64,000 nt of DNA from an uncultured Candidatus Saccharibacteria bacterium (GTDB lineage Bacteria; Patescibacteriota; Minisyncoccia; Phycocordibacterales; PALSA-1337): positions 38,790 to 102,789 of the forward strand of contig CAZBVQ010000002.1 in NCBI GenBank assembly GCA_964495685.1. Reading direction: 5' to 3'. The notes beneath the pieces are model-generated. The model was not told the DNA's origin, made no database searches, and saw only the letters and a program-made list of their open reading frames with translations. Within the stretch, counting starts at the first letter, position 1. Each line of letters begins with the position of its first letter. The position numbers were made by a program, and so were the translations under genes. Positions 10,754 to 55,864 of this stretch are shown here, piece by piece.

Positions 10754-11909
10754 AAAAAACGCTTCGAATGGCCTTGGTTGCAGCGCGTATATCCCCTTTG
10801 GTGGTCCATCTACCGAAGGAGAAACGGAGTGAAGTGCCGCTATCCACCTTCATGGCCCTCAATACATATGACTCTTCGGCGTCTCGAAGACACGAACTTT
10901 TGGTCGAACAAGCAATGCCACGAGCATCGAGCTGGAAGAGGAAAAATTCGTTATCAATTCCAGGAATAGATACGTTCGCAATATGAGGAGACTGCATATC
11001 CTCATCACCACCATTGACCTGAATGTCAGGCCGGATCTCTTTGAGCTCATTGATGAACATGTCGCGCAACGTTTTGATACGATCCGTTTCTTCAATCCGC
11101 TCTTCGACTGCCAACGTGACCGCTTTGGCGAATCCAGCAATCCCCGGAACATTCTCAGTACCTGACCTGAGCCCCTTCTCTTGTCCCCCACCGTACGTGG
11201 TAGCTCGAATGGGTATACCCCGCTTCACATAGAGACAACCCATACCGCGAGGACCGTATACTTTGCCCGCATCGAGCGTCAGGAGATCTACCCCGAGCTT
11301 CTCGACCAATACGTCTTGGAATAGAAATGCCTGTGCCGCATCAGTATGAAGCATTGGGTACTTGGATTCTAGGCCGGGCCTAGCATTTCGTTCCTTGCGT
11401 ACGAGATGTGCGACCTCGGCGATCGGTTGGATTGAACCGACTTCATTGTTGACCATCATGATGGATACCAGCACCGTATGTGGCTTGAATGATTTCTTGA
11501 GTTCATTCAAGTCGACGATCCCGTGAATGTCCACAGGAATCTGGGTAACCTCACACCCCCACCCCTCTAGAGCGGCGGTCATCTCTAGAATAGAGGAATG
11601 TTCGATAGCGGAAATGATGACATGTGGTCGCTCGATACCAGCTACCCGAGCGGCCTGAATGACACCGCTCAGTGCTAGATTGTTGGCTTCAGTACCACCA
11701 GAAGTGAAAATAATCTCATCTGGCTGGGCATGTATAGCAGAAGCAACGGATGCACGCGAAGCCGCCACTACTTTCTTGGCGGCAACACCCTCCTTGTATA
11801 AGGAAGATGGGTTTGCGTATGCAGATGCAGCATATACACCAATCTCCTTGGTAACTCGTGGATCGATGGGTGTCAGTGATGCGTAATCGAGATATATGCG
11901 TCGGGCCAT
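10749..11909 (-). CDS. cysteine desulfurase (NifS/IscS family, PLP-dependent)
   Basis: NifS/IscS-type sequence: TSGGTEANN, HTDAAQAF, and a SxHK-like region. The start is set at the internal ATG MARRIYLDYASL. It carries an in-frame palindromic-repeat insertion encoding NARPGLES just before HTDAAQ. Confidence 0.85.
   Translation of the reverse strand: MARRIYLDYASLTPIDPRVTKEIGVYAASAYANPSSLYKEGVAAKKVVAASRASVASAIHAQPDEIIFTSGGTEANNLALSGVIQAARVAGIERPHVIISAIEHSSILEMTAALEGWGCEVTQIPVDIHGIVDLNELKKSFKPHTVLVSIMMVNNEVGSIQPIAEVAHLVRKERNARPGLESKYPMLHTDAAQAFLFQDVLVEKLGVDLLTLDAGKVYGPRGMGCLYVKRGIPIRATTYGGGQEKGLRSGTENVPGIAGFAKAVTLAVEERIEETDRIKTLRDMFINELKEIRPDIQVNGGDEDMQSPHIANVSIPGIDNEFFLFQLDARGIACSTKSSCLRDAEESYVLRAMKVDSGTSLRFSFGRWTTKGDIRAATKAIRSVFF
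11369..11383. repeat. copy of the CTAGGCCGGGCCTAG palindrome inside the cysteine desulfurase CDS, in frame
   Basis: Identical 15-mer with the same flank GATT...CTAGC. On the minus strand it is translated as A-R-P-G-L-E. Confidence 0.9.
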
Positions 11910-30574: not shown

Positions 30575-31822
30575 TCACGTGAACTTCCTCCGCAAACGGT
30601 GGAACTTAATGGTAAACCGGTGCGCTTCTGCATTGAGTGCGACAATCTCCTTTTCGTATCGTGAAATAAGTTCTGGGTTTCCTATCAATCGGGCCGCTTT
30701 GTGCCGTTCATCTTTGGTGACAGCGATGACAGGTATCGAAACACGGCGGGCTTTGAGCACAGCCTCCGCATGTGCACGATGTGTCTCATTACCGTCGACA
30801 AGAATGAGATCTGGGTACGTCCATTCCGAGTGATTGAGGCGACGCGAAAGTATTTCTACCAGACCACCAATATCATCGTTACTCTGACGAGACATCTTGA
30901 ACGTACGGTACTGATTCGGTGCCAATTCCCCATTTTCAGAGACGACGAATGCTCCGACCACATTTGTACCCGAGAGATGCGCGACGTCATATGCCTCGAT
31001 GCGGAATGGTTCTTTTCGGATTTCGGATTTCGTATTTGTCTCGGATTTCGAATTTCGGATTTCGTTTTTAATTAAAGCAATATCATTGATATGATCCAGT
31101 GCGTAGATCAGCTTCTTCACTTGATCCGCCTCCTCGAATCTCATAGCCTTGGCAGCCGCATGCATCTCTTTCTCCAAACGTGCTTTGACCGTATCTTTCT
31201 TGCCTTCGAAGAAAAGAATCAAGTTATCAATCGTGTATTTGTATCGACGGCGTGCATTGGTATCATCCTCGCGAGGCGAACGACCAAGAGCGCGGTAGAA
31301 CGCATCATGTCGAGCGTCAAATGATTTCTTGTCCTTGAATGGGAACAATTTACGGAGAATTTTGAGAGCTTCTTTGATCAAACCTCCGTGTGGGTAGGGA
31401 CCAAAATAGCGTTTGATACGATAATCAATCGTCCCATCAGTCAGTGCACTATCAAAATCACGTGCACGTGCAAGGAATACACGCGGCCACACTTCGTCGG
31501 TAATAACAACATACTGTGAACTTTTATCATCACGCTCATCAACATTGTAATAGGGTTGATAGCGTTTGATTAGGGTGCTTTCAAGAATGATAGCTTCGAG
31601 TACCGAGTCAGTTTCCTGCCACCTGACCCCTGTAGCTTTGGTGATCATGTCGACAATACGTGGTCCACGCGTTTCGATAAGATCAGCCGCAAAGTAACTC
31701 CGTGTACGATCACGAAGTGACGTGGCGCGCCCAATATACAGTGGTCGACCTTTGGCATTGACGAAGGTGTATACACCCGGCTCGTCGGGCAACTTGACTT
31801 TGGCCAATTCTTGACTAGTCAT
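30575..31822 (-). CDS. uvrC: excinuclease ABC subunit C (short form without the C-terminal HhH region)
   Basis: GIY-YIG N-terminus (PGVYTFVNAKGRPLYIGRATSLRDR), a UVR-like motif (FEEADQVKKLIYAL), and an RNase H-like endonuclease region (EAYDVAHLSG). It contains an in-frame heptamer-repeat insertion. Start set at MTSQELAK (31822). Confidence 0.8.
   Translation of the reverse strand: MTSQELAKVKLPDEPGVYTFVNAKGRPLYIGRATSLRDRTRSYFAADLIETRGPRIVDMITKATGVRWQETDSVLEAIILESTLIKRYQPYYNVDERDDKSSQYVVITDEVWPRVFLARARDFDSALTDGTIDYRIKRYFGPYPHGGLIKEALKILRKLFPFKDKKSFDARHDAFYRALGRSPREDDTNARRRYKYTIDNLILFFEGKKDTVKARLEKEMHAAAKAMRFEEADQVKKLIYALDHINDIALIKNEIRNSKSETNTKSEIRKEPFRIEAYDVAHLSGTNVVGAFVVSENGELAPNQYRTFKMSRQSNDDIGGLVEILSRRLNHSEWTYPDLILVDGNETHRAHAEAVLKARRVSIPVIAVTKDERHKAARLIGNPELISRYEKEIVALNAEAHRFTIKFHRLRRKFT
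31014..31069. repeat. tandem heptamer array (CGGATTT and variants, about 7 units) inside the uvrC CDS
   Basis: Read directly. It contains the 16-mer TTCGAATTTCGGATTT, also found at 44901-44916 inside tktC. Translated in frame as a K/S/E/I/R/N-rich linker. Confidence 0.85.
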
Positions 31823-35247: not shown

Positions 35248-35262
35248 CTAGGCCGGGCCTAG
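35248..35262. repeat. copy of CTAGGCCGGGCCTAG between the uvrA start and the response-regulator stop
   Basis: Identical 15-mer with the TTCTAGG...CTAGAATCC flank. Confidence 0.9.
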
Positions 35263-41913: not shown

Positions 41914-42085
41914 GAACATCAATAAGAATGTCACATTTTGGGAAGTAAGAATACTTGACTTATAACTATATAATATGTTATAATCGTGAAGTAAGCTCAT
42001 TGAGATCACCGAGTCAAGTTCACTTCAGGAATTGGTCCCTCCATGGTGAAGGGGTCAAAACTGTAGTGAACAAGTTGAAAACAAT

Positions 42086-42484
42086 ATGAACACGATAAAA
42101 AGTTCCTTCGTATGGATAGCTGGGCTGATCCTCGTCAGCATCACACTCGTCGGTTTTATCAAATTGGTCAACTGGTCCGGTAAAGAGAGCCGGAGACACT
42201 TCGATGAAACCCACCTGACCATTAATGATGGTATCGGGTACCACGTTGAACGCAAGGACGGAGGTATCGCCGATCTGAAAGGTTGGCGCGTACATAGTAA
42301 TTGCCCGAGCGTCCTGGGCGATCTGAATCTGCTCGTGATCACGAACAGTGGTCGAGTAGCTCAGGTATTCACAGGAAAACCTATCGAACCCGGGACGAAA
42401 GTGTTAATTAAGGGCATCACGCACAAGGTCGTCTCGACGGCGGTAGGTGAGATCAGCTTCCTAACCGCTGAAGTGGCGAAGTAA
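42086..42484 (+). CDS. hypothetical N-terminally membrane-anchored protein
   Basis: 132 aa with a signal/TM segment. No family recognised. Confidence 0.4.
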   Translation: MNTIKSSFVWIAGLILVSITLVGFIKLVNWSGKESRRHFDETHLTINDGIGYHVERKDGGIADLKGWRVHSNCPSVLGDLNLLVITNSGRVAQVFTGKPIEPGTKVLIKGITHKVVSTAVGEISFLTAEVAK

Positions 42485-42490
42485 CCCAAT

Positions 42491-42533
42491 AGCGCATCGT
42501 CCCCTCCCGGGCGGTGCGCTGGTTTTTTATATC
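42491..42533 (+). terminator. terminator module AGCGCATCGTCCCCTCCCGGGCGGTGCGCTGGTTTTTTATATC (copy 1)
   Basis: Stem GCGCAUCG / CGGUGCGC with a T-run. An almost identical copy is at 43066-43108. Confidence 0.6.
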
Positions 42534-42625
42534 AAAGTGTTTTACCACATGTTGACAAGAAATAAACCGTATGATTATATTCAACTAAACAACAGCAACA
42601 CAAACCGAAAACCTATCTCTGCCCT

Positions 42626-43054
42626 ATGAAAAGATCACAGCTCATCCTCACTATGGGTGGCCCTATGCCAGTCGAAAGTCTCAGCAACTTGTGCAGTGCC
42701 CTGATGACCATCATGAGTGCAACTGAGGAATGGCTTGAGGGGTGCGCGTCCACCGATTCATCAATGACCATAATCTGGCAGGTGGTCGCCAAAAGACCCG
42801 GCGCCGCAAGTTGCCAAGTATTTATCACTGAGCTATCTGGCTCGTGCATCTTGGGCAATTTGAGTCAGTATGGACAACACGCGCTATCCACTTCTGAACG
42901 TGTCGTCCTGGCCACTCATGGATTCGAGATCACCAACATGAAAGCGGCACCAGGTAAAACTTCGGCAAGCACTGGAATCGGCGAAAAGCTTACCGCCCAA
43001 AAACTTGCTGATATTCTCAATGCACAAGTCCTTAAGAAAAAATATGCTTCCTAG
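42626..43054 (+). CDS. hypothetical protein
   Basis: 142 aa ORF followed by the duplicated terminator module. No SD and no family. Weak. Confidence 0.3.
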   Translation: MKRSQLILTMGGPMPVESLSNLCSALMTIMSATEEWLEGCASTDSSMTIIWQVVAKRPGAASCQVFITELSGSCILGNLSQYGQHALSTSERVVLATHGFEITNMKAAPGKTSASTGIGEKLTAQKLADILNAQVLKKKYAS

Positions 43055-43065
43055 ACGCGTCCATC

Positions 43066-43108
43066 AAGCGCATCGTTCCCTCCCGGGCGGTGCGCTGGTT
43101 TTTTATAT
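43066..43108 (+). terminator. terminator module (copy 2, one mismatch relative to copy 1)
   Basis: AGCGCATCGTTCCCTCCCGGGCGGTGCGCTGGTTTTTTATATC. Confidence 0.6.
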
Positions 43109-43263
43109 CCCGCTTCGCTTCCTCCTCCGCTAAAGCTACAGAGGACAAGCAAGTTTCGCAGGACAAACAAAAAACCGCGCGCCATTCCAGAAATTCTGGA
43201 GTTGCGGCGCGCGGAATCAAGTCGCCATCGGCGGATCACGGTCCGCCATTAATAGCGACAAAA

Positions 43264-43860
43264 CTACAACCCAGGGTCACCATCAGTGAAGACCTCGACC
43301 CATTCCGAACCATTGAATCGGCATTGGAACCGTCCAGTGGCATGAGCGCATGGGCGCCAGCCACTAGAGCCGACGACTCGCTCTGCCAATTCGAAGCCAT
43401 GTTCGCTCGAATAGGCCTCACCCGGCGGCAATGTTTGGAGTTGGAGTGGTAGCGGCAATTCTTGTGCCGCACGCAATGAGTGTAATGCGTTGACTGCTTG
43501 TAATCCTTGAATACGTGATGCCATATATTTTCTTTCAACTTTTGGTTTGACCGGAATATCGTAGACGGGAAGACGCCGATGTACCGTAGGGATCAAGTTG
43601 AGGTTCCCTGACACGTACACACGACGCCTCCCGCCAAAAGTGTTATTGAGTGCCACGACCAACAAGGTGTTGGTCTTCCTGCTGAGCGCCGACTGTCGTA
43701 GGCGAGATTTCTCCAGGAGATAAAGGATGGAGTTCCCACTGACCGCGCCGACGAATAAATCGACGGCCGTCCAGCGTCCACCCGTGCCTGCCTCGGTTTG
43801 AGTTCCTGAGTAGCAGATAGCCACCTTCAGTTGGTTTTTTGGTGGCATACAACTGCGCAC
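43264..43860 (-). CDS. hypothetical ORF in a GC-richer, poorly coding region
   Basis: 198 codons with a GTG start. No recognisable family. Overlapping ORFs on both strands. Low confidence that it is a real gene. Confidence 0.2.
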   Translation of the reverse strand: MRSCMPPKNQLKVAICYSGTQTEAGTGGRWTAVDLFVGAVSGNSILYLLEKSRLRQSALSRKTNTLLVVALNNTFGGRRRVYVSGNLNLIPTVHRRLPVYDIPVKPKVERKYMASRIQGLQAVNALHSLRAAQELPLPLQLQTLPPGEAYSSEHGFELAERVVGSSGWRPCAHATGRFQCRFNGSEWVEVFTDGDPGL

Positions 43861-44161
43861 CGTCAGGAGTCATCGTACGATGATTGATCATGATGATAGG
43901 AGGGGGTTGTAGTTGTGGAAGAACTGTATTTCATCTTCATTCCTCGAGCACACGCTCGAGGATAGACGAAACCGGGCTCCTTTCGTTTGGAGCCCGTCGC
44001 TGTAACTAATTGAGAGAATTCGTTACAAAGACTGACTCCAAACACGTGCCCAGGTAATAAGCACGCGTGAAGTTGATGTCATCTTTGTAAAGTGGCAATT
44101 CATATGTTGTATACAAAATGGTAGCACTGCCACCAAAAAATGCAAGGAGTTATACACAGTA

Positions 44162-44192
44162 TAAAAAGGGGGGATCTGCTGCCAGACCCCCC
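44162..44192 (-). terminator. minus-strand terminator GGGGGGTCTG-GCAG-CAGATCCCCCC followed by a U-run
   Basis: Read on the minus strand, about 270 nt downstream of the tktC stop. Confidence 0.5.
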
Positions 44193-44455
44193 GTGTTCGC
44201 ACCTGACCGATCAATGATGTAGATGGTGCCGATCTTCAACTATCGCATCCCCAACACGTTCTGTAGTACGACGGAAAGGGTGTACCACGGATTGTCGTAA
44301 CTCCAGTTCGAGTTGTTCCTGACCAGTAACGTTCCCAAAGAAACTCAGGAATGATCCTCTTTGGCCGTAGAACTGACCGTCCATACACTCGCGATTGCGA
44401 GGTCTGACTTCATCAATCGTACAGAAGCTATTATATGACTCTTATTATTGATTGT

Positions 44456-45523
44456 CTACTTCCTCAACATCACCCTCTGAGCCGCCGCATATATATCCTT
44501 TTCGCCCATACCATAGTGTTCGATAAGCTCATCCGGCTTCCCTGTCTGACCAAACTGATTTTTAACACCAACAAATTCTATCGGCACAGGAAAATGTGCA
44601 GCCAAACATTCTGCTACCGCTGATCCCAGCCCTCCAGCAATCTGATGCTCTTCAACGGTAACAATTCCGCGAGTCTCATGAGCGAGTTTGATAACCGCAT
44701 GTTCGTCGAGCGGTTTGATCGTATGCACATTGAGCACTATTACTTCCTTCCCTTCTTCTTCCAGCTTCTGTGCGACCTTGAGTGCCTTGAACAAGAGTGC
44801 GCCTGTAGCGATGATGCCGACAGATTGTTTACTATTTTGTATGTTGAATTTGGAATTTGTTTCGGATTTTCCTCCGTCGGTACGCCCCGCTGGGCGCGTA
44901 CTTCGAATTTCGGATTTAAATACTATCTGCACCTTCCCTATCTCAAATGGCGTATCTTCGGTGGTAATTATCGGTGTCTTCTCGCGAGCTAGACGAATAT
45001 AGGTCGGGTCTGGAGTTTTCGCAGCAGCCAGAGTCGCCTTCTTGGCTTGAATGGCATCACAGGGTGAAATGACTACCATGCGCGGCAAGACACGGGTGAT
45101 GGCGATATCTTCGAGTGCTTGGTGACTTCCCCCATCGGGACCCACGGAAACACCTGCGTGTGAACCAGCAATCTTGACCGGCTGATTGTTGTAACAAATA
45201 GTCGTGCGAATCTGTTCCCAATTCCTGCCTGGACTGAAAACGGCGTATGAACTGACGAATGGGATTTTACCCATAGCGGCCATTCCAGATGCGACACTGA
45301 CCAGATTTTGTTCAGCCACACCGATCTCCACGAATCGTTCTGGGAATTTCTCTTTGAACTTCAACATCTGCGTCGACTCTGTAAGGTCTGCGCATAGACC
45401 GACAATATTCTTGTCCATTTCAGCCGCCTTCAAAAGCCCTTCACCAAATCCTTTACGAATAGGAACTTGCTCGACTGCTGGGTCGAAGAGTTTTTGATTG
45501 AGTTTGAGGGAGGGGTTGAGCAT
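44456..45523 (-). CDS. transketolase, C-terminal (pyrimidine-binding) subunit, with an in-frame insertion
   Basis: Transketolase C-terminal half (VAEQNLVSVASGMA...HTIKPLD). It carries a roughly 27-aa insertion (RSTRPAGRTDGGKSETNSKFNIQNSKQ) encoded by repeat DNA at 44846-44920. Confidence 0.85.
   Translation of the reverse strand: MLNPSLKLNQKLFDPAVEQVPIRKGFGEGLLKAAEMDKNIVGLCADLTESTQMLKFKEKFPERFVEIGVAEQNLVSVASGMAAMGKIPFVSSYAVFSPGRNWEQIRTTICYNNQPVKIAGSHAGVSVGPDGGSHQALEDIAITRVLPRMVVISPCDAIQAKKATLAAAKTPDPTYIRLAREKTPIITTEDTPFEIGKVQIVFKSEIRSTRPAGRTDGGKSETNSKFNIQNSKQSVGIIATGALLFKALKVAQKLEEEGKEVIVLNVHTIKPLDEHAVIKLAHETRGIVTVEEHQIAGGLGSAVAECLAAHFPVPIEFVGVKNQFGQTGKPDELIEHYGMGEKDIYAAAQRVMLRK
44846..44920. 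repeat. repeat element inside tktC: GAATTTG/CGGATTT heptamers flanking a GC hairpin (GTACGCC...GGCGCGTAC); shares TTCGAATTTCGGATTT with the uvrC array
   Basis: Read directly. Confidence 0.8.
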
Positions 45524-45918
45524 TAATTTTTCAAATCAATATTCATAGGAGTTACCTGGTAGGAAGGATTCTGTGGATACTGATATGGTGGCGGAGCACA
45601 ACAAGTTTGGAACGTTCTGGTCATTTGATACACAAAAAATCCTCCATAGATAATCATAAGCACGAGTATGAACCAGAATAATCCACTTTTATGTTCTGGT
45701 TTAAATTGATAACGCCTCTTCAAGATCATATACACAACAAGCAAAATGATATCTACACAAACAACAATCCAGAATAGCCAGAGGAAGCCATCAGGATAGA
45801 ACGAACTATACGTTATAAGTTTTTCAAGCGAATTGTTTTGTATTATGAGAATGATTATCCATGGCAAAATTACTAGAACAGTATTTATTGTTAAAAGGGT
45901 TTTGCGTAATTTATTCAT
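45523..45918 (-). CDS. hypothetical multi-TM membrane protein encoded between the two transketolase halves
   Basis: 131 aa, very hydrophobic, with a Pro/Tyr/Gln-rich C-terminus. Confidence 0.45.
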   Translation of the reverse strand: MNKLRKTLLTINTVLVILPWIIILIIQNNSLEKLITYSSFYPDGFLWLFWIVVCVDIILLVVYMILKRRYQFKPEHKSGLFWFILVLMIIYGGFFVYQMTRTFQTCCAPPPYQYPQNPSYQVTPMNIDLKN

Positions 45919-45924: not shown

Positions 45925-46806
45925 TTAATTATGATGTGGGCTCTTAATCCTACCCCCAAGCGTCCTCACACCCTCGAGCGCCTTCCTCGCCGTCTCTATC
46001 TCCTCCGGAGTCGTCGGTGGCTTACCATGCCATTCGAACTTACGTTCAAATGCTGGCACACCCTTCGAGGCAATGGTATTGGCAATAATAACTGACGGCT
46101 TATCAAACACCGCCTGCGCCTGACCTATAGCCGCATCTATAGCGCGGAAATTGTGACCATCAATCTCCTGCACATGCCAATTCCAGGCACGCCATTTGTC
46201 GGCCAATGGATTGAGCGGCATGATATCTTCGGTGAATCCATCTATCTGAATATTGTTGCGATCGATGATAGCAGTGAGATTTTGTAGTTTCTCTTTGCCC
46301 GCAAGCATGGCACCTTCCCAGCTGTTGCCTGCATTGAGTTCCCCGTCACTCATCAGACAGTAGAATTGTTTGCCTGAGGTCTTGCCATTGTCGATCCTAT
46401 CCGCCAGTGCCATACCAACTGTTTGTGACAAACCTGAACCGAGCGGACCCGATGATGTCTCTAGTCCCGGCAACCATTCACGATGAGGGTGTCCCTGTAA
46501 TTTTGAACCGAACTTCCTTAGTGTCTTCAATTCTGATACAGGAAAATAGCCGGCGTGCGCCATAGTGGCATACAAGACGGGTGCGATGTGGCCATTGGAA
46601 AGCACGACACGATCGCGATACGACCAGTCAGGCTTCTTGGGATCATGCTTGAGCGCATGGAAATAGAGATAGGTGAAAATATCAGCCATGTCGAGCGGAC
46701 CGGCGGTGTGGCCAGAACCAGCTTCGATGAGTGACTCGAGAATAGAGCGACGGATGTCCAGCGCCTTCTTTTCGAGGAGTTTTACCTTGTCATCGGTGAG
46801 GGACAT
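45925..46806 (-). CDS. transketolase, N-terminal (TPP-binding) subunit
   Basis: GSGHTAGPLDMADI...GHPH...GPLGSGLSQTVGMA motifs of the transketolase N-terminal half. Start set at MSLTDDK. Confidence 0.85.
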   Translation of the reverse strand: MSLTDDKVKLLEKKALDIRRSILESLIEAGSGHTAGPLDMADIFTYLYFHALKHDPKKPDWSYRDRVVLSNGHIAPVLYATMAHAGYFPVSELKTLRKFGSKLQGHPHREWLPGLETSSGPLGSGLSQTVGMALADRIDNGKTSGKQFYCLMSDGELNAGNSWEGAMLAGKEKLQNLTAIIDRNNIQIDGFTEDIMPLNPLADKWRAWNWHVQEIDGHNFRAIDAAIGQAQAVFDKPSVIIANTIASKGVPAFERKFEWHGKPPTTPEEIETARKALEGVRTLGGRIKSPHHN

Positions 46807-46851
46807 TACTACATAAGTATACCACAAGCAGCATCACCACTATCTCGATTT

Positions 46852-47518: not shown

Positions 47519-47533
47519 CTAGGCCGGGCCTAG
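47519..47533. repeat. copy of CTAGGCCGGGCCTAG in the 25-nt spacer between rpiB and rpe
   Basis: Identical 15-mer, 5 nt from the rpiB stop and about 7 nt from the rpe start. Confidence 0.9.
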
Positions 47534-47536
47534 GAA

Positions 47537-48004
47537 TTATTCAATCGCATCTATCTGTTCAATCCGTCTCTGGTGTCTCTCATCTCCACTGAAAGGTGTA
47601 CTCAACCAAACTCCCACAGCATCACATGCTCCATCTGCATCGACATATCGCGCACCTATGGAAAGTACATTGGCATCATTGTGCTCGCGTGACTTCTTCA
47701 GGATATCCTGATCCCCACCATACCAGACCGCAGCACGGACTCCGGGGAAGCGATTGGCGACCATGGCTTCACCCTGCCCTGATGCACCGAAAATGATGGC
47801 TTTGGTATTCCCGGTAATATCTTCGGCGACTTTGAGCGCAGCGGCCGACATGAAAACGGGATAATCATCGCCGTCTACCAGCTCATGCGCCCCCACGTCG
47901 AGAACGGTGTACATATCTGCATGTTCACGTGCCAGAAATGCTTTGACGGCTTCTTTGGCGGCGAAACCAGCGTGATCGGAGGCGAGGATGATAGTGGTGT
48001 TCAT
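47537..48004 (-). CDS. rpiB: ribose-5-phosphate isomerase B
   Basis: MNTTIILASDHAGF and an RpiB/LacAB fold of 155 aa. Confidence 0.88.
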   Translation of the reverse strand: MNTTIILASDHAGFAAKEAVKAFLAREHADMYTVLDVGAHELVDGDDYPVFMSAAALKVAEDITGNTKAIIFGASGQGEAMVANRFPGVRAAVWYGGDQDILKKSREHNDANVLSIGARYVDADGACDAVGVWLSTPFSGDERHQRRIEQIDAIE

Positions 48005-48103
48005 GCCCCTATCTTAGCACACTAGTTTTCTTTTTGTTCACCAACTAATAGAGCCCCCGAGACGATCGTCACAGCAAGCATTCCAGGCGTAGCTACCTAT
48101 AAC

Positions 48104-48478
48104 CTATTGATTTGGATACCTAACATTTGAAGTAGACGTATCATTCACATAAACTGTCGCTGGTTTTTCTAGTCGATTACAACGTCTGCCGAGAGATAAT
48201 TGCAGATCGCAATTAGTACCGAAAACATATACGGCTCCAACTGATACCAGAATAATTACTACAAATGTCACGCTTCTAATCGTGAGACTCTGAATAGCGA
48301 AAATCAAATGACCGATAAGCCAGGCCAAAAATAAAGCCAGAAACGGTGACAACAAGAATACTGGTATCAAAAACTCTCCACCATCTGTTACTTGGTCCGA
48401 GATAAGAATCAAAACAACCGCACTGAGAGCAAAAGCTGGTAACAAACCAATAACTACTCGCTTAAAGATATTTGTCAT
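48104..48478 (-). CDS. hypothetical multi-TM membrane protein
   Basis: 124 aa, hydrophobic. Preceded by conserved leader element copy 1. Confidence 0.45.
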   Translation of the reverse strand: MTNIFKRVVIGLLPAFALSAVVLILISDQVTDGGEFLIPVFLLSPFLALFLAWLIGHLIFAIQSLTIRSVTFVVIILVSVGAVYVFGTNCDLQLSLGRRCNRLEKPATVYVNDTSTSNVRYPNQ

Positions 48479-48483
48479 GTTTT

Positions 48484-48562
48484 TTAATTATTACACTAAC
48501 CTCCCCGCTCTGATCACCTGCCCCACCACTGTATACATGTACCCATCTCATTATCACGTTAG
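48484..48562 (-). promoter_or_regulatory. conserved leader element, copy 1 (in gene orientation: ...GTATAC..GTGG.GCA.GTGATCA.AGCGGGGAG.TTA...TAATAATTAA then ATG)
   Basis: About 80% identical to 49469-49547 over roughly 50 nt. Contains TGATCA and GTATAC palindromes. Confidence 0.5.
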
Positions 48563-48566
48563 AACT

Positions 48567-49466
48567 TTATCTCGTAATGGTGAAATACTTATCACTCGTA
48601 TCGACAATGCCTCTTCCTCCTCCATAATTTGTCACCCCAATTTCTATTTTATAGTTACCTGGAGAAAGGCTGAATCTGTCCTCGGGCAAACTCGATGTCT
48701 TACCTATACACATAGTAGTCGCAGGAGTAAAAATAAAGACTCCTTGTTTCGCTGAAACTTCTCCATCAACAGGATCACAGAAATCAGAGAAGTCTGTCCC
48801 CGATCTAAGTCTGATAGCAACTTTGGCGTCATTAGATAAACCCGATGATGTCCACTTGATCGATTTTGATTCAGACATTTTCCAGATCTCTCCGCCATTA
48901 GGAGAAATAATGGTTATGGAAGGGACTGAAACAGGCTGTGTCACGGGACTATTAGTCGTCTCACTTACTTTAGGTTGAGCTGAGATTGTAAACAGCTCGC
49001 TCTTATTCCCTACCCCCACAATTTCTCCAGTTGAATAAAGACCTATGCGATATTTACCAGGCTGTACAACTCCTTGAACTTCGTCGCCTTGAATAATCCA
49101 GCTAAACGAGCCTGAGTTTGGCGATCCTTGAGAAATTTTTCGAACCGTATTGCCATTCTGGTCAATAAGATTAATGCCAATCCCTGCCGTATTAATGTCC
49201 ATTCCCAATCCACTGGAATTCCAATTAATCTTCAAATTGTCTCCAATTTTATATGTCTCTCCGTTTTTCGGCGAAGTAATCATAATTGAAGGCGAAGCAG
49301 CTGGTTGTGATGTTACTGAGGCATCATCAGTTTGATTAACTTGGGGTTGCTGTTGGTCAATACTTACTGATTTTTTAATAAATGCAAAATAACCGACAGC
49401 AACTAAAAGAACAATTATAAGTACAATCAACCAAATATTTACTGATCCCTTTTGTGTATTCTTCAT
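48567..49466 (-). CDS. secreted/anchored protein with two tandem beta-sandwich-like repeats
   Basis: N-terminal TM segment. Repeat units ITSPKNGETYKIGDNLKINWNSSG...GKYRIGLYS...ELFTI and IISPNGGEIWKMSESKSIKWTSSG...GNYKIEIGV...KYFTI. Confidence 0.5.
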   Translation of the reverse strand: MKNTQKGSVNIWLIVLIIVLLVAVGYFAFIKKSVSIDQQQPQVNQTDDASVTSQPAASPSIMITSPKNGETYKIGDNLKINWNSSGLGMDINTAGIGINLIDQNGNTVRKISQGSPNSGSFSWIIQGDEVQGVVQPGKYRIGLYSTGEIVGVGNKSELFTISAQPKVSETTNSPVTQPVSVPSITIISPNGGEIWKMSESKSIKWTSSGLSNDAKVAIRLRSGTDFSDFCDPVDGEVSAKQGVFIFTPATTMCIGKTSSLPEDRFSLSPGNYKIEIGVTNYGGGRGIVDTSDKYFTITR

Positions 49467-49468
49467 AA

Positions 49469-49547
49469 ATTTAAATTATTAAATTAATCTCCCCGCCTTG
49501 ATCACATGCTCCACAAGCGTATACGTATACCCCATTTCGTTGTTATA
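49469..49547 (-). promoter_or_regulatory. conserved leader element, copy 2
   Basis: See copy 1. It lies immediately upstream of the ATG at 49466. Confidence 0.5.
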
Positions 49548-49768
49548 CCATGCGGGTAATTTTTCCCTGTTTTTTGTCATATTGCAGAAATTATATCATG
49601 AGTTCAATCTTTAAATCTCCGTTCGCCCGTCTTTTGAAACAGCAAAAATTTGTAGTCTCAAAAGGCGAGCGAGAGATAAAATATGCTGTCAATGTTCTTG
49701 CTTTACATGATAAACAAACACTTGTTTAATAGCAAGCGCTGAAATATGGCCTGAACACTGCTTAATTC

Positions 49769-50740
49769 CTAGCAATGAACAGCTCTTGTTCTTGGAATCT
49801 TGTATTTCTTGTGTCTCTGGTTTCTTGGTACATTTCTGAAGGAATCGTAACGACGCTGGAGATCGGGACCGGTCATCATCGTATAAATCATCGAACTCTC
49901 AAGACTTGAGTGACCGAGAATATTTGAAACGTCTGAATTTGATCCGCCCTTGTTCACAATATCTCGACCCATATAATGTCGCATTGAGTGCGCATTCATT
50001 GTTGGTATACCAGCACGGTTAGAATTAGTGCGGAGCATTTCAGCCACGTTGAAGGTGGTCATTCTTTTTCCTCTCACATCATTCTGACCACACTTTGAAA
50101 CTGTAACAAATAGCGCATCGAGGTCTTCAAAGCTAAATAGTTTATATAAATGTTTTCTCTTGCTTACCCACTTTTTGAGGAGAGCATTTGTGGTTGGTGT
50201 CCAAAAAATTTCACGAATCGGTCTACGACCGCGTGATTTTTCTGTGCGTATGAGCGCTTTGCGATTATCCAAATCAAGATCGCCAACATTTAAAGAAACG
50301 ATCTCGCCGTTTCGAGCGCCCGTATCCCAGAGTAATGATATGACTGCCCTGTTTCTAATGTGATGAGGATTATTACCCTTTGGAATAGAGTTAAGTAATT
50401 TTTTGAAACCTTGTTCAGTTGCAATTCGAGGTATGTTGTACTCTTTCTTGGGGGTTGGAATAAGAAATTCATTAATAACTTTAAAGCCTTGAAGGTTATA
50501 AAATTCAAAGAATTTCTTGAGGGCCAAGGTGACAATACGAATGCCGTTTCTTTTCCAGCCGAGCTCTGTCATCAAATTCAAATAATCCATCACGTGCTGA
50601 ATAGTGATGTTTTCTATATGCGGATTTTTGAGATAGAGACAAAAGATGCGAAGCACTTTGTCGTATCGTTTGACCGTATGACCGGTCACTTTGATCTGTC
50701 TCCAACCGCTGAATTGGTCGATAGCGTCTTTGAATAGCAT
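49769..50740 (-). CDS. tyrosine-type site-specific recombinase/integrase
   Basis: C-terminal catalytic region AHSMRHYMG...LGHSSLESSMIYT (R..H..R..Y residues) and an N-terminal SAM-like domain. Confidence 0.85.
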   Translation of the reverse strand: MLFKDAIDQFSGWRQIKVTGHTVKRYDKVLRIFCLYLKNPHIENITIQHVMDYLNLMTELGWKRNGIRIVTLALKKFFEFYNLQGFKVINEFLIPTPKKEYNIPRIATEQGFKKLLNSIPKGNNPHHIRNRAVISLLWDTGARNGEIVSLNVGDLDLDNRKALIRTEKSRGRRPIREIFWTPTTNALLKKWVSKRKHLYKLFSFEDLDALFVTVSKCGQNDVRGKRMTTFNVAEMLRTNSNRAGIPTMNAHSMRHYMGRDIVNKGGSNSDVSNILGHSSLESSMIYTMMTGPDLQRRYDSFRNVPRNQRHKKYKIPRTRAVHC

Positions 50741-51154
50741 ACATGGCCAACCAAAAAGCCCACTCGATGCTACTCAAAGTGGACTTCTGGTGGCCGTCTG
50801 CTCATAGAGCTTATTGCCATTCCCTAGCTAGGGAGACATAACCTCGCGGTCACATCATCAACATTTTCCCCTATCCTTTAGGAAATAGCAAGGTCATGTT
50901 TTGATCAAAAGTCCATCGGTAGCATCAGGTCATTCTGACCCTGATCCCTTACGGGGCGATGGAGCATATTCGGTTGTCACTACATCCTAGTGTAGTGCCT
51001 TTCCATTGTCAAGAAGGATATTTCATTGGATAGTAATATGGAGAGCAGAACATCAAAATAGTCAATTAAAATAAGGCTTTTTTGAGATATATAAAGAAAA
51101 GTCACATCACCTTTTAAGCAATGCGACTGTGTTTTTCGGAAAATGATCTATTTG

Positions 51155-52153
51155 TCAGAGCTTTTCCCGAATCTGCTCCAAAAAGGCAGCGATGCTCATA
51201 TCCAAGGCCGGTAAATGCCCTTGAGCGTCAATTTCGATAGGTAATGATACCCTCGGATTCTTGCTCAAAAGCTCACTTATCGTCATTTTGGACCCCATAA
51301 GGCTGAAGATTTCGATGCTGATATCAAGGCAAAGCCTCGACAAGTCTCGTGCTCCTTCAGTCGGCAGACTTGCCCACTCCTCGATCCTGCCGAATGGAAG
51401 GATGTATGGATAAGCACAACTGAAACCGTCTGGGGTTCGGACCGGCATCAAACTTTGCGATGTCTGCTCACCGATGACACGTCCACAGTTCGGACTGAAT
51501 GGGATGAGGTCGTGATCGGGAATCCAATCAATGAGATCTTTGATCGGATGCACCATCACAATCTCGCCGGTAAATACTTCCTGAATAGTTGATCGTGAGC
51601 CATTACAACAGAATCCGAGAATGATCGCCGTAACCTTGATACTTCTGCTTTCAAGCTCATGGAGGACAAACTTGAGTGTGCCTCCAGTGAATGCACCGTC
51701 TTCAATTAGCACGATTGAACGACCGGCGATCTTCTCGGTTAGCTCATCAAGCTGTGTCCCCAGCGGATCGAATCCTGGACGCGGACCATACCCTATCATC
51801 ACTCCGTCTGAATTAAACAACCGATTGATGTTGAGGAGTAAACCTTCGCTTTTTGGATTTGAGTCTGCGATCTCGAAGCAGGTGCTGAGAACTGCTTGCT
51901 GACTGAGGTCGGTGATACGACCATCGACTTGTTCCCAGATTTTTCGCCGAAGCTCATTCATCTCGATTGTGTCGATCGTGATGCTTGGCAGAGCTCGTTG
52001 TATCTTTTTAAACAAACCGATGTGGAAGCGCTCAAACAATAAATCATCCGGCTGTGGGACAGCAAAGCCTTTTGCACGGAATGACTGAAGCCGACTGGCA
52101 ACATCGTAGGTAACCACATAGGTTCCACGACGATCCGAATGGATTTCTGACAT
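51155..52153 (-). CDS. phosphoribosyltransferase (PRTase)-domain protein of unknown specificity
   Basis: PRPP-binding motif SIVLIEDGAFTGGTL in the middle of a 332 aa protein. The flanking regions match no family I recognise. Confidence 0.5.
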   Translation of the reverse strand: MSEIHSDRRGTYVVTYDVASRLQSFRAKGFAVPQPDDLLFERFHIGLFKKIQRALPSITIDTIEMNELRRKIWEQVDGRITDLSQQAVLSTCFEIADSNPKSEGLLLNINRLFNSDGVMIGYGPRPGFDPLGTQLDELTEKIAGRSIVLIEDGAFTGGTLKFVLHELESRSIKVTAIILGFCCNGSRSTIQEVFTGEIVMVHPIKDLIDWIPDHDLIPFSPNCGRVIGEQTSQSLMPVRTPDGFSCAYPYILPFGRIEEWASLPTEGARDLSRLCLDISIEIFSLMGSKMTISELLSKNPRVSLPIEIDAQGHLPALDMSIAAFLEQIREKL

Positions 52154-52235
52154 GGAAACCTCCTATGGTTGAATTGTTTATGGAAAAGAACTGATTGAAA
52201 TCAGTTCTCAGTGTATCTCTATATCAATGAATTAG

Positions 52236-52559
52236 CTAATTATTCCCCTCATCCTTCATTCGATCGATGAGCATTTTGTATCCGCCACAGCCTTCTTTGA
52301 GCCAACGATTAATTTTGGTGATTGTCACGGGAGACTCGCCTGACTCCTCTTGAATCTGAGAAAAAGGAACGCCTGCATCAAGCTTCTTGGCAACCTCCCA
52401 GCGCATGGCAAATTCTCGGAGATCACGCTCACTCATCAGGTCACGGAAGAATGCTTTGAGTTCATCCTCGTTTTTGAGCGACAAAAAAGCCTTGATCAAA
52501 TCGGGAGATTTTTGTTGTATCTCAGCCCATATTCCGTTTTTTTCTTCATCAGGAATCAT
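52236..52559 (-). CDS. TrpR-like YerC/YecD family DNA-binding protein
   Basis: FFRDLMSERDLREFAMRWEVAKKL...GESPVTITKINRWLKEGCGGY is close to the YerC/YecD consensus. Confidence 0.75.
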   Translation of the reverse strand: MIPDEEKNGIWAEIQQKSPDLIKAFLSLKNEDELKAFFRDLMSERDLREFAMRWEVAKKLDAGVPFSQIQEESGESPVTITKINRWLKEGCGGYKMLIDRMKDEGNN

Positions 52560-52577
52560 ATTTAATAAATTATAACA

Positions 52578-53330
52578 TTACTTCCCTTTCCAGTGAACCA
52601 CTCGATTTTCGATAAACATCATTATTTTGTTCAATACAAATCCGATGACACCAGTCATGAGTATAGCTGCGTACATATCAGCTGTTTGGTACACAAGTTG
52701 AGCATCAATAATACGTTTTCCAAGACCTGCTTCAGTACCGATAAACATTTCAGTAACGATGACGATTATGAGGGAGAGTGAGATCGCGACACGGAAGCCC
52801 GAAAAGATTTGTGGCAATGCTTCAGGAAAAATGACCTTCCGGAAAAGTTCAAATCCTTTCACTTTCATTGTTTTGGCAACACGCACACGTAACTCTTTGC
52901 CGAGGTGTACTCCGTACATTGAGTTAATAAGGATCACCAGACCAGCTCCCCATGCAGTGACGGCAAATTTAGCCTGATCGCCAATTCCAAATACAAGAAG
53001 AAATAGAGGAAACAATGCTGTTGTCGGAATGCCTCGAAAAAACTCAACAGTGAATTCAAGAGCATTGTAAATCTTACTTGAATAGCCCATGAGAAGTCCG
53101 AGTGGTACTCCAATAATTGCCGCAACAGCAAAGCCAACCAGAACACGATATAGTGTGTGCCCTATGTCATTCAACATTGTTCCATTTTGGATTGAATCAA
53201 TAAGGTGGATAAATACATCATATGGAGATGCTAGGAATAGAGGACTGACAAGTTGTAAATATGAAATTACCCACCAGAGGCAGAGTAGAATTATCGGTAT
53301 CAGAACGTAATATAATTTCTTATTTTTCAT
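52578..53330 (-). CDS. ABC transporter permease (nitrate/sulfonate/taurine/ThiX type)
   Basis: Six TM segments and a binding-protein-dependent transport motif (ALNSMYG...). Confidence 0.85.
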   Translation of the reverse strand: MKNKKLYYVLIPIILLCLWWVISYLQLVSPLFLASPYDVFIHLIDSIQNGTMLNDIGHTLYRVLVGFAVAAIIGVPLGLLMGYSSKIYNALEFTVEFFRGIPTTALFPLFLLVFGIGDQAKFAVTAWGAGLVILINSMYGVHLGKELRVRVAKTMKVKGFELFRKVIFPEALPQIFSGFRVAISLSLIIVIVTEMFIGTEAGLGKRIIDAQLVYQTADMYAAILMTGVIGFVLNKIMMFIENRVVHWKGK

Positions 53331-54072
53331 ATTCGAAAGTATTTAGAATTGCATTACGAAGCTCGGTAAATTCAGGACTTGAAAGCATATCGAGGGTTCT
53401 TGGGCGTGGAAGTTTTACCTCAAAAATCTTTTTTATACTCGCGGGGCGAGGAGAAAGTACTACTACTTTATCGGCCAGAAAAATTGCCTCGTCTATATCA
53501 TGACTTACAAATAAAGTAGTTATCTTTTTCTCTTGCCAAATATCGAGAAGCTCCAATTCCATCTTTCGCGTGGTTGAATAATCAAGAGCAGAAAATGGCT
53601 CATCCATAATCAGAATATCTGGGTCATAGGCAATAGAGCGACATATAGAAACAAGCTGACGTTGACCGCCAGAGAGTTCGTAGACAAACCTATCTTTTGA
53701 GTGAAGTAGACCCACCTTGTTCAATAAGTGCTCAGCGATTTTTTGCTGCTTATCCTTATTGACTCTCGCAATCTCGAGTGGAAAAACAATATTTTCCAAA
53801 ACTGTCCGCCAAGGGAATAGGCTCTCGTTATAATTCTGAAATACAAAACCCACTTGAGCATCTTTAGGATTTTTGCCGCTTACCTTTACTTCACCTGATT
53901 CAGGGATTTCAATTCCAGCAACAATATTGAGTAGAGTTGTTTTACCTGATCCATTCGGGCCGAAAACAGTTACGAATTCACCTTTATTCACCTCAAGGTC
54001 AATGCCGTCAATAACTCTGGTATCACCAGAATCTTTTTTAAAGGTTTTTGCTATTCCGGCAAGTGAAATCAT
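53320..54072 (-). CDS. ABC transporter ATP-binding protein
   Basis: GPNGSGKTTL Walker A, LSGGQRQLVSICRS signature, ILIMDEPFSALD Walker B. Confidence 0.9.
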   Translation of the reverse strand: MISLAGIAKTFKKDSGDTRVIDGIDLEVNKGEFVTVFGPNGSGKTTLLNIVAGIEIPESGEVKVSGKNPKDAQVGFVFQNYNESLFPWRTVLENIVFPLEIARVNKDKQQKIAEHLLNKVGLLHSKDRFVYELSGGQRQLVSICRSIAYDPDILIMDEPFSALDYSTTRKMELELLDIWQEKKITTLFVSHDIDEAIFLADKVVVLSPRPASIKKIFEVKLPRPRTLDMLSSPEFTELRNAILNTFEYEK

Positions 54073-54078
54073 TACAGT

Positions 54079-55035
54079 CTATTTGTAATACGCATTGGTC
54101 AAATCTGGTTTTGATGTGAACTCTCCAGAGGCGACTAAAATGTCAAGTAATTTAGCAACAAGAGTTTTATCTATCTGCTGCGAATTTCTAAAGTAAGTCA
54201 TCCCGAGAACATCAACTACTTTCTGATCTAGCTTGAAAAGTGTCCTCGTCATATCCCTTACGTCTTTATCATTTGTATGGAGATAATCGAAAGCCCGATC
54301 AAAAGCATTTACAACTTTCTTAGCCTCACGAGGATGATTATTCACAAATTGAGTGCTTACGAGCGCTACCCCTAATGGACTGTGCTCTAATTGTTCAGAA
54401 TAGACTGAACCATAAATCTTCCTTATTCCACCACTTGTAAGTGCGATAGATATTGTAGGTTCATATGTGAATAAGGCGTCAATTGAACCTGCTGTAAGCG
54501 CAGTGAGGTGTTGTGGTGGTGGTAATTGTACAAATTGGATTGTGGAAGAATCTATGCCCTTTTCCTTAAGAAAAAGTTTGAACATATTTGAAGCACTCGT
54601 GCCTGGAAATACCCCAATCTTTTTGCCCTTCAAATCCTCGAGAGTCTTAATGGTAGAGTTTTCTTTTACCAAAAGGGAGTCAAACGGCACATCGCTCGTA
54701 ATATCAGTTAGAGCGATAATTTTCATTTTGCCAGGATCAACCATTTCAGCATTCAGATATGGAAGTATAGATATTTCAGGAGTGAGATCTATGTCTCCCC
54801 GAGCAAGCGCATCAACAATTTGATTTGAGGTCTGAAGTTGTGTGGCTTGAACAGTGATACCCTGATCTTCAAAAAACTTTTTCTGTTGAGCTATTTCTAA
54901 AGGAAGTTGGCTGGCTGTTATAGGTAGATATCCAATTTTTACCACATAGTCTGAGGGTTTATTTGAGCTTCCGATCCGAACAGCTACTAAAGCCAACACT
55001 ACTACGATTCCTATTATCCAAAATGATTTTTTCAT
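54079..55035 (-). CDS. ABC substrate-binding protein, NMT1/THI5/SsuA-like (paralogue 1)
   Basis: Signal peptide, then IGYLPITASQLPL. The C-terminal SKPDLTNAYYK is shared with the paralogue at 56931. Confidence 0.8.
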   Translation of the reverse strand: MKKSFWIIGIVVVLALVAVRIGSSNKPSDYVVKIGYLPITASQLPLEIAQQKKFFEDQGITVQATQLQTSNQIVDALARGDIDLTPEISILPYLNAEMVDPGKMKIIALTDITSDVPFDSLLVKENSTIKTLEDLKGKKIGVFPGTSASNMFKLFLKEKGIDSSTIQFVQLPPPQHLTALTAGSIDALFTYEPTISIALTSGGIRKIYGSVYSEQLEHSPLGVALVSTQFVNNHPREAKKVVNAFDRAFDYLHTNDKDVRDMTRTLFKLDQKVVDVLGMTYFRNSQQIDKTLVAKLLDILVASGEFTSKPDLTNAYYK

Positions 55036-55165
55036 GCTAATAAAATTAATGTTTTTTGATAAAATCTGAATTCTAAAGGCTTGCAACATTCTACCACAAA
55101 TGATGCCCCGTGTGTAGTTTTTTTAGGATTTTTGGACTCTAATCAAAAGAAGGACAATTAGAATA

Positions 55166-55864
55166 CTATTGCATAGCACTGTCCTTACCTAGAATCGCCT
55201 TATTTAAATACATGAAAGGAATGTTCACCAACCCGACCAACCACTTGATTGCTGTTTGTCCGATTATAAGAGGCATGATTGGTAATGTACCCAGAAATGC
55301 TATTGGAATAAATATCAAACTATCCAGAAGTAATGCAGGTATAGAACTGAATACATTTCTAGACCACAAATGCTTACCATTGGTAAATTTCTTGAACCAT
55401 GAATACACATAGGCATCGAAGTTTTCGGTAATAAGAAATGCTATCCAGCTTGCAATTGTAATTCTTGGAACTAAATTGAAGATCTGCTCCCATGATCCCT
55501 GAAGTGTCCAAAATGGTGCCGCAGGAAATTTGACTCCAAGCCAGAAAAAGAACATCATCGCTATCTGAGATACAAAAGCGATCATAATCATCTTAGAGAC
55601 TTCCCTTCTCCCAAATTTTTCATTCACTATGTCAGTGAAGAGATATGTAATAGAAAAAACAAGAACCCCACTTGGCCCGTAGAATGCACCAAACCCGAGA
55701 TCGAAAGCGGAAATCTTTGCAGCCAAAACTTGTGCAACCAACACAAATGTCACATACAATCCAATAAGTAAATCAGATCTATTGTATTTTCGGGCATACC
55801 AGCTTCCGAGAAGTGTAAAACTGGTAATACCCACAATCCAGATTATTAGTAGATATATGCTCAT
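55166..55864 (-). CDS. queuosine-precursor transporter YhhQ (DUF165) family
   Basis: VFSITYLFTDIVNEKFGRREVSKMIMIAFVSQIAMMFFFW matches the YhhQ core. Multi-TM. Confidence 0.7.
   Translation of the reverse strand: MSIYLLIIWIVGITSFTLLGSWYARKYNRSDLLIGLYVTFVLVAQVLAAKISAFDLGFGAFYGPSGVLVFSITYLFTDIVNEKFGRREVSKMIMIAFVSQIAMMFFFWLGVKFPAAPFWTLQGSWEQIFNLVPRITIASWIAFLITENFDAYVYSWFKKFTNGKHLWSRNVFSSIPALLLDSLIFIPIAFLGTLPIMPLIIGQTAIKWLVGLVNIPFMYLNKAILGKDSAMQ

Follow-up and report, generated by a model that had tools for sequence, protein, structure and literature searches.

Repeat DNA carried in frame within housekeeping enzymes is best known from Rickettsia, and the present analysis suggests that it extends to Patescibacteria with a simpler, stop-free repeat. 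As summarized in PMC10969869, the Rickettsia palindromic elements (RPEs) of Ogata et al. 2000 are units of about 150 bp that fall into defined families, encode conserved peptides and make up 44 insertions in one genome. GC-rich hairpins of the REP/REPIN type (repetitive extragenic palindromes), intragenic ERIC and SPRITE are usually intergenic and occasionally lie in frame within genes (PMC10969869). In Borgs, tandem repeats inside open reading frames (ORFs) are fast-evolving, arise independently and add predicted disordered regions, according to PMC9879509. Here we describe a 64,000-nucleotide stretch of contig CAZBVQ010000002.1 (assembly GCA_964495685.1) from a Patescibacteria bacterium with a small genome, referred to as the window, in which tktC, the gene for the C-terminal subunit of a split transketolase, carries an extra in-frame loop made of A-rich heptamers and an imperfect GC hairpin.

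In contingency loci, frameshifts turn genes on and off. The tktC array resembles them and other coding microsatellites in being a slippage-prone repeat within a gene that varies in length between strains, but none of the variants observed here disrupts the frame, and the host gene encodes an enzyme of core metabolism. The in-ORF repeats of Borgs are reportedly near-perfect, with a unit length divisible by three. In contrast, the unit in tktC and in uvrC, a second gene of the window, is 7 nt long and imperfectly copied, its peptide period is 7 aa per 21 nt, it lies on a bacterial chromosome, and the same unit is found across different genes and phyla. The cyanobacterial heptanucleotides attributed to Mazel et al. 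1990, the short tandemly repeated repetitive (STRR) sequences, are said to be dispersed tandem arrays that form a genome-wide and mainly intergenic class. They share the dispersed tandem 7-nt organization with the arrays described here and differ in unit sequence and phylum.

The likeness to RPEs (PMC10969869) lies in an in-frame repeat within unrelated housekeeping enzymes of a reduced genome, at a site compatible with the fold and with the host genes left intact; the tktC loop is of this kind, being inserted in frame where the structure of a conserved enzyme tolerates it. Whereas RPEs are palindromic multi-copy units of 100-150 bp, we found a 7-nt tandem array of 45-96 nt with direct blocks and a 22-nt single-copy hairpin, at two loci in 64 kb and with a content that varies between close relatives. 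The comparison with REP and ERIC fits the CTAGGCCGGGCCTAG family, represented in a nifS/iscS-like gene of the window, and the AAGGTTnAACCTT family of relatives; the tktC hairpin differs from them in being embedded in a direct heptamer array, and no associated transposase is known. Set against RPEs, Borg repeats and REP/ERIC together, the tktC locus is distinguished by a frame-independent 7-nt unit, imperfect copies, the combination of array and hairpin, and a low copy number. It looks like a known kind of event that was previously undescribed in Patescibacteria, and a full-text literature search returned no paper with these DNA or peptide strings or describing such repeats in Patescibacteria or other phyla. 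Our preferred reading, to which we assign a probability of roughly 0.55, is that the repeat DNA of the loop is tolerated at a permissive site, has been reshaped by slippage and indels, and is a passenger without a catalytic role.

The extra loop of the split transketolase

Judged from its sequence, the TktC enzyme looks intact. The protein carries Transket_pyr (PF02779, residues 19-183, 2e-38) and Transketolase_C (PF02780, residues 225-344, 2.9e-26), and Transketolase_N (PF00456) is found in a separate ORF nearby and upstream, at 45925-46827, the arrangement of a split transketolase. Its best solved match is 6yaj, the C-terminal chain of the Carboxydothermus hydrogenoformans split enzyme (E 1.5e-76), which was also the top Foldseek match of the modelled structure (TM 0.77-0.90); human transketolase was matched as well. 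More than 100 alignment columns are invariant and all of them are kept in the window TktC.

Between the FEIGK (residues 193-197) and GIIATG motifs the protein contains the peptide RSTRPAGRTDGGKSETNSKFNIQNSKQ (residues 207-233), and the in-frame extra segment noticed there in a preliminary description of this DNA is confirmed. Transketolases in general do without it. Aligned with 6yaj, residues 201-232 are unpaired and the 6yaj chain has about 4 residues in their place, leaving about 28 residues without a counterpart, and the span from FEIGK to ATG is 49 residues in the window as compared with 23-25 in relatives of 55-70% identity. These more distant Paceibacteria relatives have a short turn of 5-7 residues (FW-x-SEKPQ-VG and VF-x-PEIGLAH-VG; basal loops compared include FKSEKPDVG and FWESEKPQVG), so that the 32-residue loop represents a net gain of about 26 aa, or 78 nt. 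The interval first proposed, 44846-44920, covers most of this extra segment but stops short of the 3' tail of the array, which extends down to 44825.

The DNA of the loop is an A-rich array with a 7-nt period (AAATCCG/AAATTCG ... GAAACAAATTCC AAATTCA), split by a 27-nt GC-rich piece (Table 1). This piece, together with the preceding GTACG, forms on the coding strand the hairpin GTACGCGCCC-AGCG-GGGCGTAC, that is GTACGC-GCCC/AGCG/GGGC-GTAC. The hairpin pattern has one match in the window and none in 100 shuffles. Heptamers flank it on both sides, as originally described, and the two blocks are in direct, not inverted, orientation.

Structural modelling located the insert. The AlphaFold model, built with 55 homologues, has a predicted TM-score of 0.83 and is confident for the rest of the fold, with a predicted local distance difference test value below 50 at residues 208-230, between the beta-strands at 199-203 and 234-239. 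In the Carboxydothermus enzyme the Pyr domain comprises residues 1-162 and the TKC domain residues 164-312; from these limits and the modelled strands, the insert is predicted to form a beta-hairpin turn near the start of the TKC domain. Pfam also divides the protein at the insert. The segment is probably floppy, being predicted disordered, and by homology it would lie remote from the thiamine-diphosphate active site.

A low-complexity region in a metagenome-assembled genome invites the suspicion of an assembly or gene-calling artefact. However, an ENA scaffold and the Logan assemblies of two different runs carry the 1068-nt tktC gene without a single difference, the exact protein is present on seven contigs, homologous variable loops occur in dozens of independent assemblies, and the reading frame is kept. 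The identity of the gene in three assemblies led us to dismiss an assembly chimera, against which the preliminary description had cautioned, and the artefact reading is effectively refuted.

The same array is found in a second gene 14 kb away. Lag-7 autocorrelation reaches at least 0.61 in just 23 of about 64,000 45-nt segments, all of them at 31010-31073 in uvrC or 44824-44870 in tktC, and the heptamer signal exceeds chance. The exact 16-mer AAATCCGAAATTCGAA is common to the tktC loop and the uvrC segment, and both are read on the same coding strand as KSEIRN / KSETN[ST]K. One exact 16-mer repeat in 64 kb is by our own estimate close to the chance expectation; the 16-mer is thus insufficient alone, and the kinship of the two loci, which had been claimed from the 16-mer and heptamers, rests on periodicity, strand and reading together. 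The uvrC linker, between ALIK and FRIEAYD, differs in sequence and length (about 8-50 residues) in 120 of 120 relatives, and that of the window is heptamer-coded and a few residues longer than typical. The uvrC segment is better described as a replacement than as an insertion. In the earlier count of three enzymes with in-frame repeat insertions, the nifS/iscS-like case is real, with a different repeat family.

Several other candidates were considered and rejected. An intein or self-splicing intron does not agree with a low-complexity insert of 26 aa, as splicing domains have at least about 130 aa, and no Rfam family was found at or near the site. A programmed frameshift would need an X_XXY_YYZ slippery site, which is absent, and an internal start is not supported since no start codon follows the internal GGAGG. 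The motif CCG[GA]CGGAGG, present in the insert, in the L130 and L132 loops (L numbers denote the loci compared) and in the PDGG-coding part of tktC, occurs near chance (by our own estimate about 3 expected in the DNA searched) and was not used.

Variation of the loop among relatives

The 120 best database matches to TktC, with 70-100% identity, all come from Patescibacteria/Paceibacteria-type metagenomes. Among them the loop ranges from 6 to 55 aa, whereas the flanks FEIGK and VGIIATG are almost invariant. About 15 of these homologues have recognisably heptamer-coded peptides (SEIRNPK, KSETNSK, IQNSK), which in a neighbour-joining tree of masked proteins are interleaved with short or unrelated loops. 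Eight members share a plan in their DNA, TTT AAATCCG AAATYCG ... and then GAAACAAATTCN AAATYCN ..., with a middle that is either empty (L004, L006, L209, L210) or filled with a GC-rich hairpin that differs by lineage (Table 1). The locus thus fits a coding tandem repeat of period 7, with unit number and content varying among the window, L004, L006 and L207-L210.

In the two nearest relatives (92% and 88% identity) the loop, of 23 aa, is already coded by heptamers and lacks the 27-nt GC piece. Among the sequences compared, only this piece appears to be specific to the present genome, and the view of one clean insertion of a defined element has to be given up for a hypervariable loop. The loops are mosaics. 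The left block is common to the window, L006 and L208, and AAATCCGAAACAAATTC is common to the right block of the window and L207. The window loop has 33 nt in common with L004 and 17-19 nt in common with each of L006, L207 and L208, and L004 and L209 have a 32-nt identical loop block though their flanks are 69-78% identical.

The recurrence of a GC hairpin at the same relative place of the array in four lineages raises the question of whether the hairpin or the flexible peptide is selected, either as a translation-slowing mRNA structure at the Pyr/TKC boundary, as an antisense RNA or terminator, or as a linker for alpha2beta2 assembly. Both heptamer loci are at or near domain boundaries (the early TKC turn and the linker before the UvrC C-terminal endonuclease domain), and identical loop blocks occur between diverged genes. 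The site folds as RNA with -22.7 kcal/mol on the sense strand (z -2.2) and -31.9 kcal/mol on the antisense strand (z -3.5), the latter better than shuffles, but the antisense fold derives partly from the self-complementary AATT core of the unit, pairing with G-U ends. The nearest relatives have no hairpin and many relatives no insertion at all, for which reason a function is not favoured. Moreover, neither the sequence nor the length of the loop is conserved, Rfam gave nothing relevant at the tktC site or across the window, a terminator and promoter scan did not call the hairpin, and the TKC domain has no known catalytic role (PMC7661550). We regard a functional element as improbable. When the GC cores of L208 and L128 are aligned, one stem pair is changed in an apparently compensatory way; this single pair is too little for claiming a conserved structure.

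Other lineages have filled the same turn with unrelated palindromes. In L140, L178 and L187 the TktC loop is the palindrome AAGGTTnAACCTT-N11-AAGGTTnAACCTT (-15 to -22 kcal/mol), in opposite orientation in L187, and the same palindrome lies in frame within TktN, TktC and other ORFs of L140, L143, L178, L179, L187, L198 and L202. Intergenic gaps at the same loci contain tight, terminator-like hairpins with A and T runs on their flanks, formed by a close variant of this palindrome, AAGGCTAAACCTT-AAGGTTTAGCCTT. The loop of L127 contains another long palindrome (-29.9 kcal/mol), and at the protein level several homologues have TPPFSKGDS-type peptides in the loop. The TktC turn is therefore a place where hairpin-forming repeats from different families have landed repeatedly. 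It would offer a natural experiment on the gain of disordered segments in minimal genomes.

The L130 loop, at about 3070-3180 of that locus, has a GC-rich palindromic piece of 29 nt between the two copies of a 12-nt direct repeat, TACAGGGGATAG. This arrangement resembles either a small insertion that duplicated its target or a duplication of local sequence.

Origin of the array and its occurrence in other phyla

The heptamer repeat is not confined to this genome. The 21-mer AAATCCGAAATYCGAAATYCG is found in at least 120 stretches among the matches listed in species-representative genomes and also in 32 viral contigs. Hosts among the matches listed include Verrucomicrobiota, Acidobacteriota, Planctomycetota, Chloroflexota, Bacteroidota, several Proteobacteria, Omnitrophota and Patescibacteria. 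Both the cross-phylum arrays and eight viral contigs contain the composite motif AAATCCGAAACAAATYC; AAATCCGAAACAAATYCNAAAT was also found in 8 viral contigs, and the variant AAATCCGAAACAAATCC in an Alcaligenaceae locus. Compared with the cross-phylum definition, at least three tandem AAATYCG often followed by AAAC AAATYC, uvrC fits the 21-mer, and tktC has two units plus AAGTACG, with AAATCCGAAACAAATTC. No relevant Rfam family was found on eight of the cross-phylum loci. Several of the inverted arrays examined sit in short intergenic gaps of GC-rich genomes. In two Patescibacteria loci the array lies apparently inside an ORF with a K/S/E reading, one of 187 codons (L068) and the other by our own reading of the sequence (L046); their products are candidate dihydrouridine-synthase-like and endonuclease-Q-like proteins. 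Long open frames in high-GC genomes are often spurious, which limits the frame reading of the cross-phylum loci.

Among 220 arrays, 25 inverted pairs surround a core of 26-119 nt that is often GC-rich, and this arrangement resembles terminal inverted repeats. Together with the in-frame dispersed palindromes in nifS here and at the same loop in relatives, it could be taken for the work of a canonical mobile element, a miniature inverted-repeat transposable element (MITE) or a REP-type unit placed by a transposase such as the hairpin-specific Y1 enzyme proposed for RPEs. The tktC locus itself agrees poorly with such an element. Its blocks are direct, the loop has neither the terminal inverted repeats nor the target-site duplication of a MITE, and its hairpin occurs once in the window, where a REP or REPIN would be multi-copy. 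Close relatives differ piecemeal and not by the presence or absence of one unit, and no transposase was seen, although no search aimed at transposases was made. We consider this origin very improbable, and the term repeat element, used in the preliminary description, is not appropriate here in the transposon sense.

How the array came to occupy the turn is best considered from the basal loops, which read GAATCGGAAAAATC or AAAAATCCAAAAG. The array starts exactly at the conserved F-K-S-E codons TTT AAA TCC GAA. A purely in-situ origin would have the turn codons AAATC-GAAAA seed a coding microsatellite that expanded by slippage, the resemblance to uvrC and to other phyla being convergence. This is a serious rival. 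Heptamer arrays of like composition are also frequent, no other copies were found near the gene in close relatives, and the lack of terminal inverted repeats and target-site duplication is in keeping with it. However, a single 7-nt slip breaks the frame, so that only 21-nt steps survive; the composite AAATCCGAAACAAATYC, which goes beyond the unit alone, recurs in unrelated genomes and viral contigs; and the same array is present in a second gene. Other lineages filled the loop with palindromes dispersed in their own genomes, which indicates that import into the site happens. On this balance we hold an in-situ origin to be possible, though on the unlikely side.

Under the preferred reading of tolerated repeat DNA in a permissive site, an A-rich 7-nt array, with units AAATCCG/AAATTCG followed by GAAACAAATTC and AAATYCN, occupies the TktC beta-hairpin turn and would have been copied in by illegitimate recombination or template switching, an entry route that we infer. 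The native K-S-E-K turn codons (AAATC-GAAAA) may have primed the copying through microhomology, since they already resemble one repeat unit. In this genome the 27-nt GC-rich piece would then have been added inside the array, completing the hairpin, and slippage together with small indels of three nucleotides or multiples thereof would later have lengthened, shortened and patched the array. The insert is presumably neutral.

The persistence of the array may be explained by the permissive site, the absence of stop codons and the hydrophilic, predicted disordered peptide. All six frames of (AAATCCG)n and (AAATTCG)n are free of stop codons; the sense frames give the circular peptide KSEIRNP or KFEIRNS and the antisense frames the hydrophobic RISDFGF or RISNFEF. 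The uvrC segment is open in six of six frames and the tktC loop in four of six. Every genic copy observed uses the hydrophilic K/S/E/N/R reading, and the hydrophobic reading was seen in 0 of the best 120 TktC homologues. This bias is what selection on a surface loop would leave.

A number of results weigh against the preferred reading. Inspection of the loop edges against basal and close-relative loops revealed no terminal inverted repeats or target-site duplication, and no second copy of the GC hairpin exists in the window. The two heptamer loci in 64 kb are both genic, with no intergenic source copy seen either in the window or in some 50 kb surrounding tktC in each of its six closest relatives. 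Outside the TktC loop, heptamer arrays are almost absent from this flanking DNA of the relatives, and they are rare in 830 kb of other Paceibacteria metagenome DNA, so that the clade is not rich in the heptamer family. Two control heptamers of matched composition were found in 4 and 16 stretches of viral contigs as compared with 32, that is, they are 2-8 times rarer. As the control heptamers are fairly common, the cross-phylum family may partly reflect A-rich heptamer repeats generally, and such arrays appear to be common as a class, with a single origin of the AAATCCG type not established. The compensatory change between L208 and L128 hints at a constraint on the hairpin.

A broader proposal is that heptamer arrays rich in A, whether or not they enclose a GC hairpin core, make up a very widespread six-frame-open repeat class (more than 10 phyla and viral contigs) which, along with lineage-specific terminator-like palindromes, feeds disordered insertions into the core enzymes of streamlined Patescibacteria. 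We consider this proposal doubtful. If true, it would imply a directed process, for example a hairpin- or single-strand-specific recombination activity, and not random insertion filtered by selection; a directed process would be indicated because at least three unrelated hairpin-forming families share the TktC turn and palindromes also occur in TktN and other ORFs.

The analysis shows no metabolic or regulatory consequence of the tktC loop. In practice, loops of this kind make Patescibacteria proteins look more divergent than they are, disrupt domain models and can lead alignments and trees of these proteins astray. Of greater interest as leads are the reuse of one turn by unrelated palindromes and the breadth of heptamer arrays across phyla.

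Further repeats and neighbouring genes

The positions of the features are collected in Table 1.

Table 1. Loop, host genes and related repeats in the window, with comparison loci (positions in comparison loci are those of the locus named)
Feature	Position	Strand	Evidence or fold
Whole variable TktC loop KSEIRSTRPAGRTDGGKSETNSKFNIQNSKQS, 32 residues (203-234)	44822..44917	-	Translation, AlphaFold
Net gain over the basal turn of 5-7 residues, some 26 codons; either edge may shift by a few bases	44831..44908	-	Basal loops, 6yaj
Left heptamer block AAATCCG AAATTCG AAGTACG, peptide KSEIRST	44897..44917	-	Lag-7 autocorrelation 0.79; 16-mer common with uvrC
GC-rich piece CGCCCAGCGGGGCGTACCGACGGAGGA, 27 nt, peptide RPAGRTDGG, not in the two closest relatives	44870..44896	-	DNA comparison with L004, L006
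Imperfect GC hairpin GTACGCCCCGCTGGGCGCGTAC, 22 nt	44880..44901		Single match in window
Right heptamer block AAATCCG AAAC AAATTCC AAATTCA ACATACA AAATAGT AAACAA, peptide KSETNSKFNIQNSKQ	44825..44869	-	Lag-7 autocorrelation 0.61
tktC, C-terminal (Pyr + TKC domain) subunit of split transketolase, 355 aa, intact	44456..45523	-	Pfam, 6yaj, Foldseek
tktN, N-terminal (PP domain, thiamine-diphosphate-binding) subunit	45925..46827	-	Pfam Transketolase_N 8.8e-61
Second heptamer locus, uvrC linker NEIRNSKSETNTKSEIRKEP, residues 265-284 of ORF 30575-31858	31007..31066	-	TRF period 7, 7.7 copies
nifS/iscS-like ORF 10749-11966, in-frame NARPGLES encoded by palindrome CTAGGCCGGGCCTAG	11364..11387	-	Different repeat family
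GC core of the window loop, GTACGCGCCCAGCGGGGCGTAC			Loop fold -21.2 kcal/mol
GC core of L207, TCCGCCAGCTGGCGGA			Loop fold -15.7 kcal/mol
GC core of L208, TCCGCC...GGTGGA			Loop fold -21.5 kcal/mol
GC core of L128, CGCTTCGCC...GCGAGGCG			Loop fold -18.9 kcal/mol
L004, L006, L209, no GC core			Loop fold -0.8 to -4.7 kcal/mol
L178, examples of the AAGGTTnAACCTT palindrome	9521-9557, 10546-10582, 1989-2014
Cross-phylum arrays, L007-L126 and L211-L248	e.g. L067 5129-5234, L231 5041-5175, L024 82-211

At the NARPGLES site, the nifS/iscS-like protein has about 7 aa more than solved IscS/NifS chains. The underlying 15-nt perfect palindrome, CTAGGCC[C/G]GGCCTAG, has 7 copies in 64 kb, 6 of them intergenic and 1 in the nifS/iscS-like gene (10715-10752, 11369-11383, 26167-26204, 35248-35262 and 47519-47533); the intergenic copies adjoin gene ends, and two doublets have a spacing of 23 nt. 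A short palindrome with many, mostly extragenic copies is what characterizes REP and REPIN sequences, and from its sequence and distribution this looks like a REP-like or terminator-like family. A 46-nt inverted repeat at 26047-26157, 91% complementary with a 19-nt spacer, lies beside the doublet at 26167-26204.

The junction of the two transketolase halves is also variable, as its gene content differs between relatives. In the window a 131-aa ORF at 45523-45918 on the minus strand, with a strongly hydrophobic translation and no Pfam hit, lies between tktN and tktC and abuts the tktC start; the relatives have a 128-aa ORF (L004), nothing (L006), a helix-turn-helix gene (L208) or a ParE-toxin gene (L210). 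Downstream of tktC, the 2.4-kb stretch 42010-44455 has only short ORFs, which gave no Pfam hits. It includes a 43-nt direct repeat (42491-42533 and 43067-43109, 98% identical) that resembles a GC hairpin with a T run after it; further terminator-like hairpins, several in number, lie at 43973-44192.

Elsewhere, the GC content falls from about 0.45-0.52 to about 0.37-0.44 across 48001-64000, the last 16 kb of the window, which could be acquired or compositionally distinct. The two longest inverted repeats of the window are due to a divergent tRNA cluster at 28016-28478, with Pro-CGG and Ala-GGC on the minus strand and Pro-GGG and Val-CAC on the plus strand.

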